Positions 3,827-40,476 of a stretch of 46,281 nt of DNA are shown here, piece after piece. Position 1 is the first letter of the stretch. Every line of letters begins with the position of its first letter. Origin of the DNA: Planctomycetota bacterium (GTDB taxonomy: Bacteria; Planctomycetota; Phycisphaerae; UBA1845); contig JADFPW010000001.1 in assembly GCA_022562105.1 (NCBI GenBank), positions 1 to 46,281 on the forward strand. Reading direction: 5' to 3'. Made by a program: the position numbers and the translations under genes. Below the pieces are notes generated by a model. It ran no database searches. It worked only from the letters and a program-made list of their open reading frames with translations, and was not told the origin of the DNA.

Positions 3827-4606
3827 CTAGACGCCTACGATGTTGTAGCCGGCATCGACGAAGATGTTCTCGCCGGTGACGCCGCTGGACAGGTCGCTGG
3901 CCAAATACACTGCGGTTTTTCCTACTTCGCCCGGCTCGATGTTGCGGCCTAGCGGGGTCTTGTTGGTGCAAATCTCCATCATCTCCTCGATCCCGCCGAC
4001 GGCCATGGCTGACAGCGTCCGCAACGGGCCGGCGCTGATCGTGTTGACGCGGATCCCGCGCGGACCCAGTTCAACAGCCAGGTAGCGTGTGATGGCCTCC
4101 AGCGCCGCCTTGGCCACGCCCATGACGTTGTAACCCGGGATAACCTTCTGGCTGCCGTAGTAGGTCATGGCCATGATCGACCCGCCGTGGGGCATCATCT
4201 CCTTGGCACGGTTGGCCATGGCCAGCAGGCTGTAGGCGGAGATGTCCAACGCCTGGGCGAAGGCGTCTCGCGGCGTATCCACAAACTTGCCGATCTTGAG
4301 GTGGGCCCGCTCGGCGTAGGCGACCGAGTGGACCAGGAAGTCGATCGAATCGAAACGCTCCCTGGCGGCCGCAAAGGTGGCATCAAGGCTTTCGTCGCTG
4401 CAAACATCGCACGCCATCAGCCCTGAGTCCGAGAGGTTTTCCGCCTCCAGCGCCTTCTTGACCCGATGAAGATTCTTGTCGCCGGGCATGTAGGCATAGC
4501 CACACACCGCCCCTTCGGCCGTGAAGCTCTTGGCCACGTGCAACGCGATGCTTCGATCGTTGGCTATTCCGAAGATCAGCCCCTTTTTGCCGTCCAATAG
4601 TCCCAT
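3827..4606 (-). CDS. fabI: enoyl-[acyl-carrier-protein] reductase (NADH) FabI
   Basis: 259 aa. N-terminus MGLLDGKKGLIFGIANDRSIA. SDR fold with the Y...K catalytic region and a GENIFVDAGYNI C-terminus, typical of FabI. Confidence 0.93.
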   Translation of the reverse strand: MGLLDGKKGLIFGIANDRSIALHVAKSFTAEGAVCGYAYMPGDKNLHRVKKALEAENLSDSGLMACDVCSDESLDATFAAARERFDSIDFLVHSVAYAERAHLKIGKFVDTPRDAFAQALDISAYSLLAMANRAKEMMPHGGSIMAMTYYGSQKVIPGYNVMGVAKAALEAITRYLAVELGPRGIRVNTISAGPLRTLSAMAVGGIEEMMEICTNKTPLGRNIEPGEVGKTAVYLASDLSSGVTGENIFVDAGYNIVGV

Positions 4607-4891: not shown

Positions 4892-5506
4892 TTAGCGTCC
4901 TGTGGGCTTGGCTCGACGATTTCCTGTGCTCAGGCAGTGGCTGCAATCGAGCACCTTGGTGTCCGGATGACGCTTGTGCCATTCATCCCAACGAATCCCG
5001 GCCTCGAACGCCTCGGGTGGCAGCTTTTTGAGGGTCTGACCGGTCAGTGGGCCGGCCAGGGCTTCCCCTGTTTCCTGCAGCCAGAGCGTGCCGGTCTTCA
5101 CGTCGTACATGATCAGGTTGCCGTTCTTGACCTTCCCGGAAACGCGCAGGGTGGCCTCACCGTCAGCGAGTCTGCGATCGTGAACCACGATCGATTGCTC
5201 GCTCGGTCACCACGAGGCGCTGATCGGAATCCCTCCGACGCGGTCGTTGACGATCTGGTGGTTGTTCAAGATGTAGAGCGGATAGGCCCGGGCTTCGCCT
5301 CCGATGAAGACACCGATCACCTTCGTTCCCGGAGCGATGATGGCGTCCTCGGCCGACACCAGAACCGGATCGACGATCGCCTCCTTGGCATCGGGGGCGC
5401 GGTATTGGATCGGCTCGGTGTAGGGTTGGCCACCCGTACGCGTTAGATCCTGCTTGGGATCGTGACAGCCCGCCAGTGCGAACCAGCGCATGACGCGACG
5501 ACCCAC
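4892..5506 (-). CDS. DUF3179-family protein with in-frame TGA (5207-5209); candidate selenoprotein, alternatively a pseudogene
   Basis: ORFs 5207..5506 and 4892..5188 share one frame and are separated only by TGA. The joined sequence ...EARAYPLYILNNHQIVNDRVGGIPISASW[TGA]PSEQSIVVHDRRLADGEATLRVSGK...LIMYDVKTGTLWLQETGEALAGPLTG...HPDTKVL matches the DUF3179 pattern as I recall it. Possible lipobox FALAGC at the N-terminus. Confidence 0.6.
5165..5203 (-). promoter_or_regulatory. SECIS-like stem-loop starting 3 nt after the in-frame UGA
   Basis: RNA sense: UGA CCG AGCGAG-CAAU-CGAUCGUG-GUU-CACGAUCG-CAGA-CUCGCU. This gives a 6-bp lower stem, a 4x4 internal loop, an 8-bp upper stem, and an apical loop beginning with G. 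Confidence 0.55.
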
Positions 5507-5522: not shown

Positions 5523-7286
5523 TCATGGTGATTTATCCCCTACCGGACCAGGTTCCACTAATCTTAACGTCTGATTCGCCGTCACGTTCGCCTGGGATTG
5601 TATTTTTCCGCATGGCCACCGGATTTCGACACGGGAGGCGCGTTCGGCGTCTCCCAGGCCGAAATGGAGCGTCTTGGAATGTCCGCTAAGGTAGCCGCCG
5701 CCGATCAAGAGTTCTCGCATCTGCACCGGCTGACCGTCCACGTGCACCGACACGCGGGCGTTGGCGGCGTCGCGGTTGCAGTGGCGACCTTCCAGATCGA
5801 TATTCAACCAATGGCCCACATTCTTCGAGACGTTGCGTAGCAGAGCCGGCGATCCGCCGTGGTTGTTGATGGCTAGATCCGGTCGGCCGTCCCCGTCGAA
5901 ATCCGAGACCGCCCCACCGCGACCGACATGGGTCTCGTCGAAATAGGGCCCGGCGGCCGCTCCGAGACGGTGCCACCGTTTGTCACTGCGTCGTTCATAA
6001 ATCTGAGAGCGTTGGGGCAGCATTTTGGGATTCGTAAGAACCTCCAGGGTCAGTTCGTCCTCGATGGTGCTGCCGTACACCACGAACAGGTCGCGATCCC
6101 CGTCGTTGTCGAAGTCCTCGAAACCAGCCGCCCATCCCACCAGGTCTAGATTGCTCTTGCGGAGTCCGACGGCTGGTGACCGGTCCTCGAAGAGCAGGGC
6201 GCCTTCCAGCGATTCGTTCACATAGAAGGCTGGATCCTCGGCCACCCAGTGGGTGACCAGGAAGTCCTGATCCCCGTCGGAGTCGAGATCGACGATGGCC
6301 ACTCCCATGCCGCCGCGCGGGTCGAATACGCCGGAGACTATCGCGACGTCTTCAAACGTCCCGTCGCCCTTGTTGCGGAACAGGCAGTCCAACGATTGAT
6401 CGTTGGAGACGAACAGATCGATCGCTCCGTCGTTGTCGAAGTCGCACCAGACGGCCTGCATGCTGCGTCCATGGGCGGCTGCTGTCCCGGAGATTTCCGT
6501 GACGTCTCGAAACGTCCCGTCGGGCTCCTGGTGAAACAGGTGATTCGGCAACGGCGGGTAATTCCCCGGCGTGGTCATCGGCGCCGGTCGCCCAGCCACC
6601 AAGGGGCGCGTGCGAGCCTTGGCTATGGGAAAATCAACATAGCGACAAAGATAGAGGTCCAGGCGACCGTCGCCGTCGTAGTCGCCCCAGGCGCTGCCCA
6701 GGCAATAGTCCGTCACACCGCCCAGTCCGACCATGTCGGTGACGTCGCGGAAGCGCCCGCCATCATTGCGAAACAGATTCACGCCTTCCAGATGGGTGAC
6801 CAGCAGATCGTCGTCGCCGTCGTTGTCGAAGTCCACGAACACCGCAGCCATGTCCATGCGCGACCGGGTCAACCCTGCGGCCTCGGTCACGTCGGTAAAC
6901 CGGCCGGCGCCGTCGTTGCGCCACAGTCTGCTACCCGGCAGTTTGTTGCGCTGGGTGGCATCCATAAGCAACGGCCCGTTCAGGTTGCACAGGTACAAAT
7001 CGTCGTCCCCGTCGCTGTCGTAGTCGCCCCAGGCGCAGCCCGAGCCGTTGTCCTCCGGAACCAGCGAAGCCCGCGTTTGACCGTTGAAGTGAACGAACCG
7101 CGGGAGGCTGGAGGCTGGGATCCTCTCAAATCGGATGGTCGGTGAGTTAGGCACCTGGCTTGGCGCCTGTTGGGCGGTCGTCGGCACGGTGAGCACCGCG
7201 GCGATGGCCAGCACGTACCCGCAGACCCTGCCCGTTGCAGGTTTCCAGGTTGTTCCGTCCCGTTTCGTCGCCAATTTCGCAACCAT
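5523..7286 (-). CDS. CRTAC1-family protein (FG-GAP/VCBS repeats plus ASPIC/UnbV C-terminal domain), secreted
   Basis: 587 aa with a signal-like N-terminus. Repeated DxDxDGDxD motifs (GDYDSDGDDDLYL, VDFDNDGDDDLLV, CDFDNDGAIDLFV, SDFDGDGRPDLAI). C-terminus NARVSVHVDGQ...GGGYLSGHSKTLHFGLG...VEIRWPCG is typical of UnbV_ASPIC. Confidence 0.85.
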   Translation of the reverse strand: MVAKLATKRDGTTWKPATGRVCGYVLAIAAVLTVPTTAQQAPSQVPNSPTIRFERIPASSLPRFVHFNGQTRASLVPEDNGSGCAWGDYDSDGDDDLYLCNLNGPLLMDATQRNKLPGSRLWRNDGAGRFTDVTEAAGLTRSRMDMAAVFVDFDNDGDDDLLVTHLEGVNLFRNDGGRFRDVTDMVGLGGVTDYCLGSAWGDYDGDGRLDLYLCRYVDFPIAKARTRPLVAGRPAPMTTPGNYPPLPNHLFHQEPDGTFRDVTEISGTAAAHGRSMQAVWCDFDNDGAIDLFVSNDQSLDCLFRNKGDGTFEDVAIVSGVFDPRGGMGVAIVDLDSDGDQDFLVTHWVAEDPAFYVNESLEGALLFEDRSPAVGLRKSNLDLVGWAAGFEDFDNDGDRDLFVVYGSTIEDELTLEVLTNPKMLPQRSQIYERRSDKRWHRLGAAAGPYFDETHVGRGGAVSDFDGDGRPDLAINNHGGSPALLRNVSKNVGHWLNIDLEGRHCNRDAANARVSVHVDGQPVQMRELLIGGGYLSGHSKTLHFGLGDAERASRVEIRWPCGKIQSQANVTANQTLRLVEPGPVGDKSP

Positions 7287-36758: not shown

Positions 36759-38063
36759 GTGCCCTACCGTACATTCGCCGTTTGCACCCTGGCTGCGATG
36801 GTCGTCGCGCCGCTTGCCTCTGCCCAAGTCTCGTACCGCCAGCCGGAGGAACTGGCCCTCGCTGCGGACCTGGCCAAGGCCAACCTGAGTTCCGACTGGA
36901 CCCTATCGCTATCGCTGGGAAGCGCCGAGCAGATTCAAGACGCTCGGGTAGTCGGTGACGCCCTCTACGTATGGACGTCGGGGGGCTCTCTCTATGGTCT
37001 CGACCGGCACCGCGGATTGGTCCGGTGGACCCAGCAGTTGGGCGACGCTGCCCGCTACCCGATCCACGGGCCGACGCATATGAATCGATTGGACGGGGGA
37101 AGGCTGACGGTGGTGGTCACGTTTGATCGGGTGCTGCTGTTCGACTCCTACGACGGGCAAATGGTCGGTCGCATGGATCTCGACTTCGCCCCAACCAGCG
37201 CGGCGGCGGCGGTGGGTTCGATGCTCTTCCTCGGCGGTGGCGATCAAATGGTCCACGCGGTGCAATGGTGCGGGCTGTGTCCGGGGCAGAGTTACGAGCA
37301 CTGGCGGGTGATGGCCGGCGGGTCGGTTCAAGCGACGCCTATTGTGGTGCGTCCGGGGGTGCTTTTCTACGCCTCCACCGGTGGGCAGTTGGTCAGCGCT
37401 ACCGCGTTGGACAAGACAGGCCTATGGGGTCGCAAGCTGCACACGCCGGTCCGTGTGGACATGGTGGCCCGTTCCGATGGCCTCTACGTCACCGGCGACA
37501 ACGCGTCGATCTACCGTTTTGATCCGGCCACCGGGGCGTTGCTCCAACGCTATCGCCTGCCCGCGACGGTGACGTCCACGCCGGTGTTGGACGACGGGGA
37601 TCTGTTTGCCCTCGCCGCCGACGGGGCTCTCTACTCGGTGGATCCCATCTCCGCCGAGATTCGGTGGAGTCAACCCGGGACGACGGCCCTCCTGGCGGTT
37701 CAGGAAAAGCAACTCGCCCTGCACGGCCGTGACCACGACCTGGTCATCGTCGATCGATTCACCGGCCGGGAATTGGGGCGACTCGATTTGAATCGCGTCG
37801 ATCGTTTTGTGTCCAATCGACTTGACGATGCGGTCTATCTGCTGGGGGACAACGGCCAAATCCTGGCGGCTCGGCCTGCGGGTATCCCGTACCAGCGTTC
37901 GGCTGAGTTGTCGGAAGCGGCCTTGTGGCGACACAGTGCGCCTGCTAGGCGGATGGCTGGGAAACAGTCCGGTGGGACTACAGCCGTGGCGATCTCGGCG
38001 GCCGATCAGGATCCGCTCCGCAGCAAGAGCACATTGCCCACACAGGTTTCGGAGACGCCGTAG
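36759..38063 (+). CDS. PQQ-like (BamB-like) beta-propeller repeat protein, secreted
   Basis: 434 aa from a GTG 7 nt after GAGGAG. Signal peptide FAVCTLAAMVVAPLASAQ. Repeated G.LY.LD...G...W blades. Confidence 0.75.
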   Translation: MPYRTFAVCTLAAMVVAPLASAQVSYRQPEELALAADLAKANLSSDWTLSLSLGSAEQIQDARVVGDALYVWTSGGSLYGLDRHRGLVRWTQQLGDAARYPIHGPTHMNRLDGGRLTVVVTFDRVLLFDSYDGQMVGRMDLDFAPTSAAAAVGSMLFLGGGDQMVHAVQWCGLCPGQSYEHWRVMAGGSVQATPIVVRPGVLFYASTGGQLVSATALDKTGLWGRKLHTPVRVDMVARSDGLYVTGDNASIYRFDPATGALLQRYRLPATVTSTPVLDDGDLFALAADGALYSVDPISAEIRWSQPGTTALLAVQEKQLALHGRDHDLVIVDRFTGRELGRLDLNRVDRFVSNRLDDAVYLLGDNGQILAARPAGIPYQRSAELSEAALWRHSAPARRMAGKQSGGTTAVAISAADQDPLRSKSTLPTQVSETP

Positions 38064-38097
38064 CAGCAGATCGATCGGTTCCCTCGCACCGTCAATC

Positions 38098-40476
38098 ATG
38101 TCCACACGCAAGCCTCAACGCGCCCTCATCAGCGTTTACGACAAGACCGGCCTCGTCGATTTCGCTCGCGCTCTGGTGGACGAGTTCGGCATCGAGATCA
38201 TCTCCACCGGTGGGACGGCCAAGCTGCTGACCGAAGCGAAGATCCCGGTCACGCTTGTCGAGGAGGTCACCGGCTCGCCCGAGTTGCTCGGAGGACGGGT
38301 CAAGACTCTGCATCCTAAGATCCACGCCGCCATCCTGGCTGACCGGGACAACCCCGAGCACATGCGTCAGCTCGACGAGCAGGGCATCAAGCCCATCGAC
38401 ATGGTGGTGGTCAACCTCTACCCCTTCGAGAAGACGGTAGCCGACCCTAATTGCACGTTCGAGCAGGCCATCGAAATGATCGACATCGGCGGGGTGACTC
38501 TGCTGCGGGCTGCCGCGAAGAATCACAAACACGTCATCGTGGTGCCCTGGTCCGACGGTTATTACGATTTGATCCTCGGGCGACTACGTTCGACCGTGAC
38601 GGGAGGTGAACCCTGCGGGTTGAAAGAGGACAGCTTCAACGCTTTTTGGGCGACCTGCTCATACGACTCGATCGTCGCCTCCTGGTTGAGCCGGTCTGAT
38701 GACGATGAGTCGCCAGACTTCCACGCCGTTCGGATGTGGCGCACACAGCATCTGCGATACGGTGAGAATCCACATCAATCTGCCGATCATCTTCTGATCT
38801 ATGATACAGAAGAGTGGCGTCACGACCTCGCAGTCGGATCATTGGACTCATTATCCTTCAATAACTGTGTCGATGCCAGCGCGGCTTTGGAGCTGTGCGC
38901 CGAGCTCACCCTGGCGTTCGGTGCCGGGAAACGACGCCCGGAAATAGGATCCCAAGAAGCGCGGCATGGAGCAGTGTGGCACCGGTTTTCAACCGGTGAA
39001 CAGTGTGGCACCGGCTTTCAACCGGTGAAGCTGGATAACCCGAGCTCATCACTCCAACGAGTTGACGACGAACGACACACTCGACGAAACCTTCCTCACA
39101 TTCAAACACCCGGCAAGACCTACTTTGTGACGTTCCGCGTCAAGGGCGATCAGAAACTGAGTCCAAATGAACGGCAGATCGTTCTGCAAGCCTGCCGATT
39201 CTGGGATGGGAAGAAGATTCATCTTCATGCCTGTGTGATCATGCCCGATCATGTACATTTGCTCTTCGCGCCTCAAGAGGTCAAGGGAGGGCAATGGGTG
39301 TCTCTTAGTGAGATCCTGCACTCGATCAAACGATACTCGGCTCGTGAGATCAATAAGCTGCGAGGGCGAACCGGGCCGCTGTGGCTGGACGAGTGTTTCG
39401 ATCGCATTGTTCGTAATGAGCGGGAGTTCTGCGAGAAAGCGGACTACATTGCCGATAACCCGATCAAGGAAGGACTCGTTGATGCGGAACCGTATGAATG
39501 GTGGTGGGATGAGGAAGCTCACCGGTTGGGAATTGGTGCCGAGAGCGAGAATCGACAACAACACAAACACCGGTTGAAAACCGGTGCCACACAGGAGGGT
39601 GCCACACAGGAGGGTGCCACACAGGAGGGTGCCACACAGGAGCGTGGCGCACAGGGGTTGTCCTATTGTTGCACATTCACCAAGCATACCAATGCCTGCG
39701 GTGTAGGGGTCGGGGCGGATCGCGTCGGTGCTTACCGGCGAGCGTACCTGGGCGATCCTAACGCAGCAATGGGAGGCATCCTGGCCTGTGATTTTAACGT
39801 CCAGTCCGAGTTCGCCGAGGCCGTGATGAATACCTACACTCGATGGGGCAAGGAGGCGGGCAGTCGGGGGTTTTTCGTTGAAGTGTGGATCGCTCCATCG
39901 TTCGACGAAGCCGCCCTGCAACTCATCCGCTCATCCAAGAACTGGGGGAAACGCGTCCAACTGCTCGACGCTCGTAACCTACTGGAGGCCCCCGCATCGC
40001 CGAACGAGCTTCAGTATCGCAGCGTGGCCGGGGGAATGCTGGTCCAGACGCCGGATGTCGTCGGGCTCAACGAGGGTGATTGGAAGGTGGCCACGACACG
40101 AGAACCCACCGATGCGGAAATGGATGATCTGCGGCTGGCGTGGCTGGTGTGCAAGCACACCAAGAGCAACGCCATCTCCATCTGCAAGGACGGGATGCTC
40201 ATCGGCAACGGGGCGGGGCAGGCGTCGCGGGTGATGAGCTGTCGGATCGCCACTTGGCTGGCCAATGACAACGGCCACGCGGACCAATTGGCGGGCGCGG
40301 TGGCGGCTTCGGATGCGTTTTTTCCATTTCGCGATGGCCCCGATCTGCTGGTGGATGCGGGAGTGACCGCGATCATCCAACCCGGGGGGTCCAAGCGCGA
40401 TCAGGATGTTATCGATGCCTGCAACGAGCGGGCGGTGGCCATGGTGCTGACCGGCACTCGCCACTTCAAGCACTAG
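38098..40476 (+). CDS. purH: bifunctional IMP cyclohydrolase/AICAR transformylase PurH carrying an in-frame RAYT/REP insertion
   Basis: N-terminal part: ALISVYDKTGLVDFA, STGGTAKLL, GGRVKTLHPKIH, VVVNLYPF, LRAAAKNH, RYGENPHQ, SFNNCVDASAALEL. C-terminal part: TKHTNACGV, KSNAI, GNGAGQASRV, ASDAFFPFRDG, IQPGGSKRD, RHFKH. About 250 extra residues lie between the two parts, with no stop codon. Confidence 0.85.
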   Translation: MSTRKPQRALISVYDKTGLVDFARALVDEFGIEIISTGGTAKLLTEAKIPVTLVEEVTGSPELLGGRVKTLHPKIHAAILADRDNPEHMRQLDEQGIKPIDMVVVNLYPFEKTVADPNCTFEQAIEMIDIGGVTLLRAAAKNHKHVIVVPWSDGYYDLILGRLRSTVTGGEPCGLKEDSFNAFWATCSYDSIVASWLSRSDDDESPDFHAVRMWRTQHLRYGENPHQSADHLLIYDTEEWRHDLAVGSLDSLSFNNCVDASAALELCAELTLAFGAGKRRPEIGSQEARHGAVWHRFSTGEQCGTGFQPVKLDNPSSSLQRVDDERHTRRNLPHIQTPGKTYFVTFRVKGDQKLSPNERQIVLQACRFWDGKKIHLHACVIMPDHVHLLFAPQEVKGGQWVSLSEILHSIKRYSAREINKLRGRTGPLWLDECFDRIVRNEREFCEKADYIADNPIKEGLVDAEPYEWWWDEEAHRLGIGAESENRQQHKHRLKTGATQEGATQEGATQEGATQERGAQGLSYCCTFTKHTNACGVGVGADRVGAYRRAYLGDPNAAMGGILACDFNVQSEFAEAVMNTYTRWGKEAGSRGFFVEVWIAPSFDEAALQLIRSSKNWGKRVQLLDARNLLEAPASPNELQYRSVAGGMLVQTPDVVGLNEGDWKVATTREPTDAEMDDLRLAWLVCKHTKSNAISICKDGMLIGNGAGQASRVMSCRIATWLANDNGHADQLAGAVAASDAFFPFRDGPDLLVDAGVTAIIQPGGSKRDQDVIDACNERAVAMVLTGTRHFKH
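38972..39658 (+). mobile_element. REPtron: RAYT (IS200/IS605-like Y1 transposase domain, about 39061-39510) flanked by inverted family-C REPs
   Basis: RAYT motifs: RRNLPHIQTPGKTYFVTFRV, HUH (MPDHVHLLF), SIKRYSAREIN, FDRIVRNE and ADYIADNPIKEGLV. Left flank has 2 x CAGTGTGGCACCGG(T/C)TTTCAACCGGTGAA. Right flank is the inverted CACCGGTTGAAAACCGGTGCCACACAGG. Confidence 0.8.
39584..39658 (+). repeat. 15-bp tandem repeat (about 5 units) encoding (GATQE)n
   Basis: GTGCCACACAGGAGG repeated three times exactly, then GTGCCACACAGGAGC and GTGGCGCACAGGGGT. The unit is the tail of the family-C REP. Its length is a multiple of 3. Confidence 0.85.

Follow-up and report, generated by a model that had tools for sequence, protein, structure and literature searches.

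A short DUF3179 gene with a probable selenocysteine codon, paired with an ASPIC/UnbV gene in Planctomycetota

Introduction

In the stretch of DNA analysed here (the window; 46,281 nt of a contig from a Planctomycetota bacterium), the minus-strand open reading frames 5207..5506 and 4892..5188 belong to one frame, and the sole stop between them is a TGA, read from 5209 to 5207. The question raised by this arrangement is whether the locus encodes two short proteins or a single one in which the UGA is translated, and, if it is translated, as which amino acid. An earlier note, made from the sequence alone, had described the two frames as split only by this TGA, which the frame analysis confirms, and had proposed that the gene belongs to the DUF3179 family and encodes a selenoprotein. 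Our results indicate, with a probability of about 0.88, that 4892..5506 on the minus strand specifies a single protein of about 200 aa rather than a pair, and that the UGA at 5207-5209 is decoded as selenocysteine (Sec).

Results

On the minus strand, the read-through product has the form ...IVNDRVGGIPISASW-[TGA]-PSEQSIVVHDRRLADGE..., also written ...NNHQIVNDRVGGIPISASW-[TGA]-PSEQSIVVHDRRLADGE.... The gene starts with a GTG at 5506, with an alternative ATG start at 5491-5489, and stops with a TAA at 4892-4894. The profile comparison proposed in the earlier note, in which U is replaced by C in the joined product of 204 aa, gives a match to Pfam PF11376 (DUF3179) with an E value of 4.4e-41 and a score of 141.6 bits, against a gathering threshold of 27. 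The match covers profile positions 6-149 of 292 only and falls short of the full two-repeat domain. When the joined protein is aligned with the Cys-containing homologue P0064 by BLASTP, a gap-free stretch pairs GGIPISASW-C/U-PSEQSIVVHDRR with GGIPIVVTY-C-PLCNAALVFERR. Here U stands on the first Cys of the CPLC motif, the Pro is retained and the second Cys is changed to Glu, exactly as the earlier note had read the motif from the family consensus. The gene and its codon are as follows.

4892..5506, minus strand: single-repeat DUF3179 gene, probably encoding a selenoprotein (open reading frames, PF11376, orthologues in 77 loci, dN/dS)
5207..5209, minus strand: in-frame UGA, very probably a selenocysteine codon, which gives residue 100 when the product is counted from the GTG (TGA in 77/77 loci, alignment to the Cys column)

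A search with the joined protein gave 75 database hits. In 45 of them, gene calls with lengths of about 112-163 aa, the sequence runs as far as ...[SAC]ASW and stops one residue short of the TGA. DNA of related loci was obtained from four species-representative genomes (two Pirellulaceae MAGs, one Planctomycetota MAG and one Acidobacteriota MAG), from 80 metagenome loci and, in several further cases, through exact protein look-up. TGA-bearing orthologues, which the earlier note had suggested seeking in related genomes and metagenomes, proved to be the rule: the codon is TGA in all 77 orthologous loci that allowed the motif to be located, and neither TAA, TAG, a Cys codon nor any other sense codon occurs at this position among them. 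Because identity to the window protein falls to about 46%, and because the median pairwise dS is above 1 among the orthologues, which comprise 60 distinct sequences of a 60-nt region, this conservation does not come from near-identical copies.

The codons around the TGA behave as coding sequence on both of its sides. Over 516 pairs, the dN/dS ratio was 0.289 upstream of the TGA (75 codons) and 0.287 over the whole part downstream of it. Codon +1 encodes Pro (four codons) or Ser (TCG, TCA, AGC, AGT) in the 60 distinct sequences; all 60 have Ser at codon +2, drawn from both Ser codon families (AGC 41, AGT 4, TCC 10, TCT 3, TCA 1, TCG 1); codon +3 is Glu in 59 and Asp in one, never Cys or Thr; and codon +4 is Gln or His. 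The equal dN/dS values, the mixture of Ser codons at +2 and the conserved residues at +1, +3 and +4 show that translation proceeds in frame past the TGA and that the downstream part is under purifying selection. A pseudogene disabled by a nonsense mutation, or a Cys codon (TGC or TGT) misread as TGA in sequencing, would be at odds with the same TGA in 77 of 77 loci from many independent metagenomes and MAGs, with a downstream dN/dS equal to the upstream one and with the lack of any orthologue carrying TGC or TGT at these loci. We give this explanation a negligible probability, although the gene in the window has one further lesion in its favour: compared with locus L087, the closest relative that is complete, one nucleotide is missing from the part encoding the signal peptide.

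5487..5488, minus strand: 1-nt deletion relative to L087 (DNA alignment of TCATGC-GCTGG with TCGTGCTGTTGG)

The product of L087 (P0001) is 84% identical to the window protein in the N-terminal half. Through the deletion, the conserved ATG (5526-5524) is no longer in frame with the rest of the gene and opens a frame of 27 codons that is closed by TAA. Starts in the main frame remain at the GTG at 5506 and the ATG at 5491, giving the short signal MGRRVMRWFALAGC; the frameshift shortens the hydrophobic signal region of the window copy. Compared with L087, the linker of the window copy is shorter as well, by an in-frame deletion of 42 nt. The 1-nt deletion may be an assembly error, a tolerated shift of the start with a shorter signal peptide, or early decay.

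Downstream of the UGA there is a candidate recoding element.

5175..5193, minus strand: SECIS-like hairpin CGAUCGUG-GUU-CACGAUCG (conserved pairing, covariation, RNAalifold)

Read from 5193 to 5175, the hairpin has an 8-bp stem that starts 13 nt after the UGA and a loop at 5183-5185. In the 60 distinct sequences, 95.6% of the cells of the helix (columns 20-27 and 31-38) are paired, and RNAalifold gives the same helix. Pair 22-36 is C-G in 31 sequences, G-C in 14, A-U in 13 and G-U in two; pair 25-33 is G-C in 38 and A-U in 22; neither is unpaired in any of the 60, and loop positions G28 and U29 are invariant. Pair 25-33 joins the first base of a Val or Met codon to the third base of a His codon, and since changes at the latter are synonymous, selection at the protein level cannot explain the covariation. 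The fold of the single window sequence is only modestly better than that of shuffled sequences (z about -1.9 to -2.0), and the whole window has no Rfam match at the gathering threshold. The window copy can also form a lower stem, which was dropped as a conserved part.

5165..5203, minus strand: lower stem of AGCGAG (5198-5203) with CUCGCU (5165-5170), from the fold of the window copy; across the clade only 47% of its cells are paired

Bacterial SECIS elements of the Escherichia coli fdhF type are stem-loops in the coding region, shortly after the UGA, with G-U in the apical loop. Judged against the bSECIS model, the hairpin resembles them in being an in-frame stem-loop soon after the UGA, in its apical G-U and in a distance of about 21 nt from UGA to loop; it differs in a loop of 3 nt (5 nt if the closing pair opens) and in that a bulged U is not evident. 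By analogy with the bacterial Sec pathway, we infer that SelB carrying Sec-tRNA(Sec) would bind the hairpin at 5175-5193 while the ribosome sits at the UGA, and that Sec would be inserted at 5207-5209 in place of termination. The candidate selenoprotein gene of the earlier note is thus supported by the TGA at 77 of 77 loci, the dN/dS values, the Cys column and the covarying hairpin, and from these sequence data the in-frame TGA is very probably a selenocysteine codon throughout the clade.

If a near-cognate tRNA for Trp, Cys or Arg read the UGA without selenium, or if UGA were reassigned in this lineage, one continuous protein would also result. Searches for protein domains and tRNAs found no selA, selB, selD or tRNA-Sec within the 46-kb window, a result in favour of a selenium-free mechanism, and a tRNA search of every related locus, like that of the window, gave nothing; some Planctomycetes are reported to possess selA, selB, selC and selD (PMC4807772). 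However, TGA is the ordinary stop of other well-supported genes of the window, such as the ASPIC/UnbV, metH and metG ORFs, and UGA is therefore not reassigned. Read-through without selenium leaves unexplained a conserved structured element with an invariant loop G-U and a covarying stem at SECIS distance, and a position that is Cys in homologues of a recognised selenoprotein family. We regard these alternatives as very improbable, and decoding as Sec is retained.

The expectation that DUF3179 would be absent from the described selenoprotein families was wrong. An entry "DUF3179 domain-containing protein, pfam11376, UxxC/T" stands in the selenoprotein tables of two reviews (PMC9312934, from 2022, and PMC13188914, from 2026), both of which credit the 2007 study by Zhang and Gladyshev of the symbionts of Olavius (PMC1976440). 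DUF3179 is thus a known, not a new, selenoprotein family. An exhaustive HMMER search with the post-TGA half of the window protein found many full-length DUF3179 genes that are split at the same codon. Among the best 150 representatives, about 60, by a rough count, are "proteins" of 204-254 aa in which the match begins at residue 1-14, and these (among P0086-P0224) represent what follows the TGA in full-length DUF3179 selenoprotein genes. Two such loci were checked at the DNA level. L091 (TGA at 190-192) reads ...ATW-TGA-PLC..., the described UxxC type, and L090 (TGA at 3977-3979) reads ...PSW-TGA-PIDH..., a U-P-I-D motif that lies outside the published UxxC/T.

These full-length genes also bear on whether two polypeptides could be made instead of one. 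Termination at the TGA could be followed by re-initiation 18 nt downstream at a GTG or ATG, the two products assembling and the hairpin serving in translational coupling. A possible start does always lie at codon +7 or +8 of the clade (GTG 30, ATG 22, GTC then GTG 8), and gene callers annotate two genes. On the other hand, the five codons from the TGA to the start are kept as amino acids (P/S, S, E/D, Q/H) and not as nucleotides, the Ser in this interval coming from both the AGY and the TCN families; the TGA falls exactly on the conserved Cys of the family; and L090 (...U-P-I-D-H-S-G-V-V-Y) and L091 (...U-P-L-C-Y-T-G-I-V-Y) lack a conserved start codon nearby. Re-initiation is thus very improbable, and the single selenocysteine-containing product remains the preferred reading.

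Within the known selenoprotein family, the window clade is a distinct short, probably exported DUF3179 subfamily. In full-length DUF3179 proteins, the N-terminal and C-terminal halves are homologous (hhalign probability 98%, E 7e-14), which makes the full-length protein an internal duplication; the CPLC motif of these members occurs only in the first repeat, and the window protein ends after that repeat. Two giant proteins, P0076 (1587 aa) and P0078 (1004 aa), have 4-6 DUF3179-like stretches, so that the copy number of the repeat can be one, two or many. The clade motif is [WYF]-U-[PS]-S-[ED]-[QH]; W99 and Q104, which flank the Sec, appear as invariant in alignment A1, the motif of the clade also allowing [WYF] and [QH] at these positions. 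The Phe or Tyr of the family's vFDR is replaced in the clade by an invariant His (His109), giving VH[DE]R. Two further motifs lie towards the ends of the protein.

4934..4945, minus strand: C-terminal C-S-H-C, of the form C-x-H-C (inspection of orthologue sequences)
5465..5476, minus strand: lipobox-like L-A-G-C, with the Cys codon at 5465-5467 (read from the sequence)

By inspection, 57 of 60 distinct orthologues possess C-x-H-C close to the C-terminal end, and its His is invariant in alignment A1; among the aligned homologues, no full-length Cys-type DUF3179 protein has a Cys at the position of this motif. Locus L003, from an Acidobacteriota MAG, and loci L067 and L068 lack the C-x-H-C cysteines, L003 keeping only the His (TDSHL) and the other two reading LLFSPIVSS, possibly through a frameshift; all three retain the TGA and the hairpin. 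In a marine subclade (L038-L056, for example L043 and L046), long His-Asp-rich tails of the type (HD)n or HDKD directly follow the C-x-H-C, and their composition suggests metal binding. At the other end of the protein, a lipobox-like x-x-[GASC]-C follows a hydrophobic N-terminus, by motif, in 41 of 45 N-terminal gene calls of relatives, and the protein of the window clade probably leaves the cytoplasm as a lipoprotein.

An exhaustive search of a library of 1.8 billion representatives gave no Cys-containing orthologue above 47% identity, and the representatives closer than this limit are all short fragments that start just past the TGA. Short single-repeat proteins of the Cys type (CPIC) exist but are distant, with about 35-38% identity. 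Full-length DUF3179 proteins of the Cys type (for example P0064, P0039 and P0006) are 36-42% identical to the window protein over the first repeat and share with it the motifs ARAYP...H[QE]IVND...GG.P, but they have CPLC, a Phe or Tyr at the place of His109 (vFDR against VHDR), a second repeat and no C-x-H-C, and they occur in varied genomic contexts, without ASPIC/UnbV, that gave no information on function. The described Sec-containing DUF3179 proteins (UxxC/T) belong to the same Pfam family, with Sec at the same column and a hairpin directly 3' of the UGA (as in L091), whereas the window clade has Glu or Asp, and not Cys or Thr, at +3, one repeat (about 200 aa) in place of two (about 300-350 aa), a lipoprotein-type N-terminus, a C-terminal C-x-H-C that may be followed by a His-rich tail and an obligatory ASPIC/UnbV neighbour. 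An acidic residue at +3 is not unique to the short clade, since the full-length L090 has U-P-I-D. No NCBIfam model was found, and a literature search gave no description of a short subfamily paired with ASPIC/UnbV, the terms "UnbV" and "selenoprotein" together giving nothing.

The neighbour lies directly upstream on the same strand.

5523..7286, minus strand: gene for a secreted FG-GAP / ASPIC-UnbV (CRTAC1-like) beta-propeller protein (Pfam FG-GAP_3, UnbV_ASPIC, FG-GAP)

This gene has no internal TGA; the TGA that ends it (5525-5523) shares bases with the ancestral ATG start of the DUF3179 gene, the two forming ATGA at 5526-5523. An ASPIC/UnbV homologue occupies the same position and strand in 57 loci, that is, in essentially every locus with enough upstream sequence, and the DUF3179 gene would be co-expressed with it. 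The comparison of loci found no third neighbour conserved throughout the clade. In L035 (positions 2-826) and nine other marine loci, an extra ORF on the same strand, absent from the window, lies upstream of ASPIC/UnbV; its function is unassigned, and it may extend the cassette to three genes in this subclade. A link between ASPIC/UnbV and selenium (Kim et al., PMC4807772, Table S9) may deserve a look.

Elsewhere in the window, a purH-like ORF (37792-40476, plus strand) with MGS and AICARFT_IMPCHas domains seems to contain an in-frame insert of about 250 aa, in which residues 472-522 match an IS200-like Y1 transposase (E 2.3e-5, just above the Pfam cut-off).

Discussion

The residues around the selenocysteine suggest two kinds of role for the protein. 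We consider a Sec-based metal-binding or metal-dependent site the most likely one, at roughly even odds given the motifs available. Such a site would bring together Sec100, the Glu or Asp at +3, His residues in its vicinity and the C-x-H-C of the C-terminus. It is favoured over a CxxC redox couple because of the carboxylate in place of the second Cys, the new adjacent His and the invariant His of C-x-H-C, and also because of the His-rich tails and the probable export from the cytoplasm.

The main alternative, which we consider less likely, is a selenol/thiol oxidoreductase of the cell envelope, for example a peroxidase or a reductase of the disulfide or methionine-sulfoxide type, in which Sec100 would attack and a Cys of the C-terminal C-x-H-C would resolve. 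The position of Sec on the first Cys of a CxxC, the UxxC/T of the known Sec forms of the family, the invariant W99 and Q104 beside the Sec and the fact that most bacterial selenoproteins are redox enzymes (PMC9312934) are all in keeping with such an enzyme. The partner Cys of the CxxC is, however, Glu or Asp in 60 of 60 sequences, and the conserved neighbourhood holds ASPIC/UnbV alone, with no reductant gene of the thioredoxin, DsbD or CcdA type. The (HD)n tails and the invariant His within C-x-H-C also weigh against it, and the C-x-H-C motif and the His-rich tails appear to fit metal binding at least as well as the redox function that the earlier note had suggested.

Structural comparison gave a lead only. 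The AlphaFold model of the Cys homologue P0064 has a pLDDT of 90.9, and Foldseek found no significant match for it in the PDB; its weak best hits were to Rieske-type ferredoxins (the top ones at E 0.07-0.1) and to NirD, over an E range of 0.07-0.5 and with probabilities reaching 0.9. A sequence-profile search of the PDB found no sequence relative. Sec occurs in metal-binding Cys motifs of MerT-like proteins, of a cation-transporting ATPase (UxxC), and of YHS-domain and CobW-like proteins (PMC9312934). These proteins, which are presumed to handle soft metals, likewise have Sec in place of one Cys of a short Cys motif; the window protein has no homology to any of them, and its putative metal binding is read from C-x-H-C, invariant His residues and the (HD)n tails.

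In a still more specific form, which we put forward only tentatively, the protein would be an obligately selenium-dependent, metal-handling lipoprotein of the envelope that forms a two-gene module with a CRTAC1-like ASPIC/UnbV protein in marine Planctomycetota. Sec, an acidic residue, His and C-x-H-C would make up its site, to which marine lineages would add His-rich tails. If this proved true, it would provide the first functional handle on DUF3179 and on the bacterial ASPIC/UnbV proteins.

The gene of the window and dozens of similar database clusters are now called as two fragments of about 100 aa, an annotation that the Sec codon corrects, and the same correction applies to the many full-length DUF3179 genes that are split at this codon. 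What is new here is the short subfamily paired with ASPIC/UnbV; DUF3179 as a selenoprotein family was already known. Orthologues with Cys are missing from the clade, so the organisms that carry the gene (for the most part Pirellulaceae from the sea and further Planctomycetota) would depend on selenium for this protein, a dependence that is unusual for a probably exported lipoprotein. The strict pairing with ASPIC/UnbV and the Cys- and His-rich C-terminus give starting points for experiments on two large families whose function is unknown.
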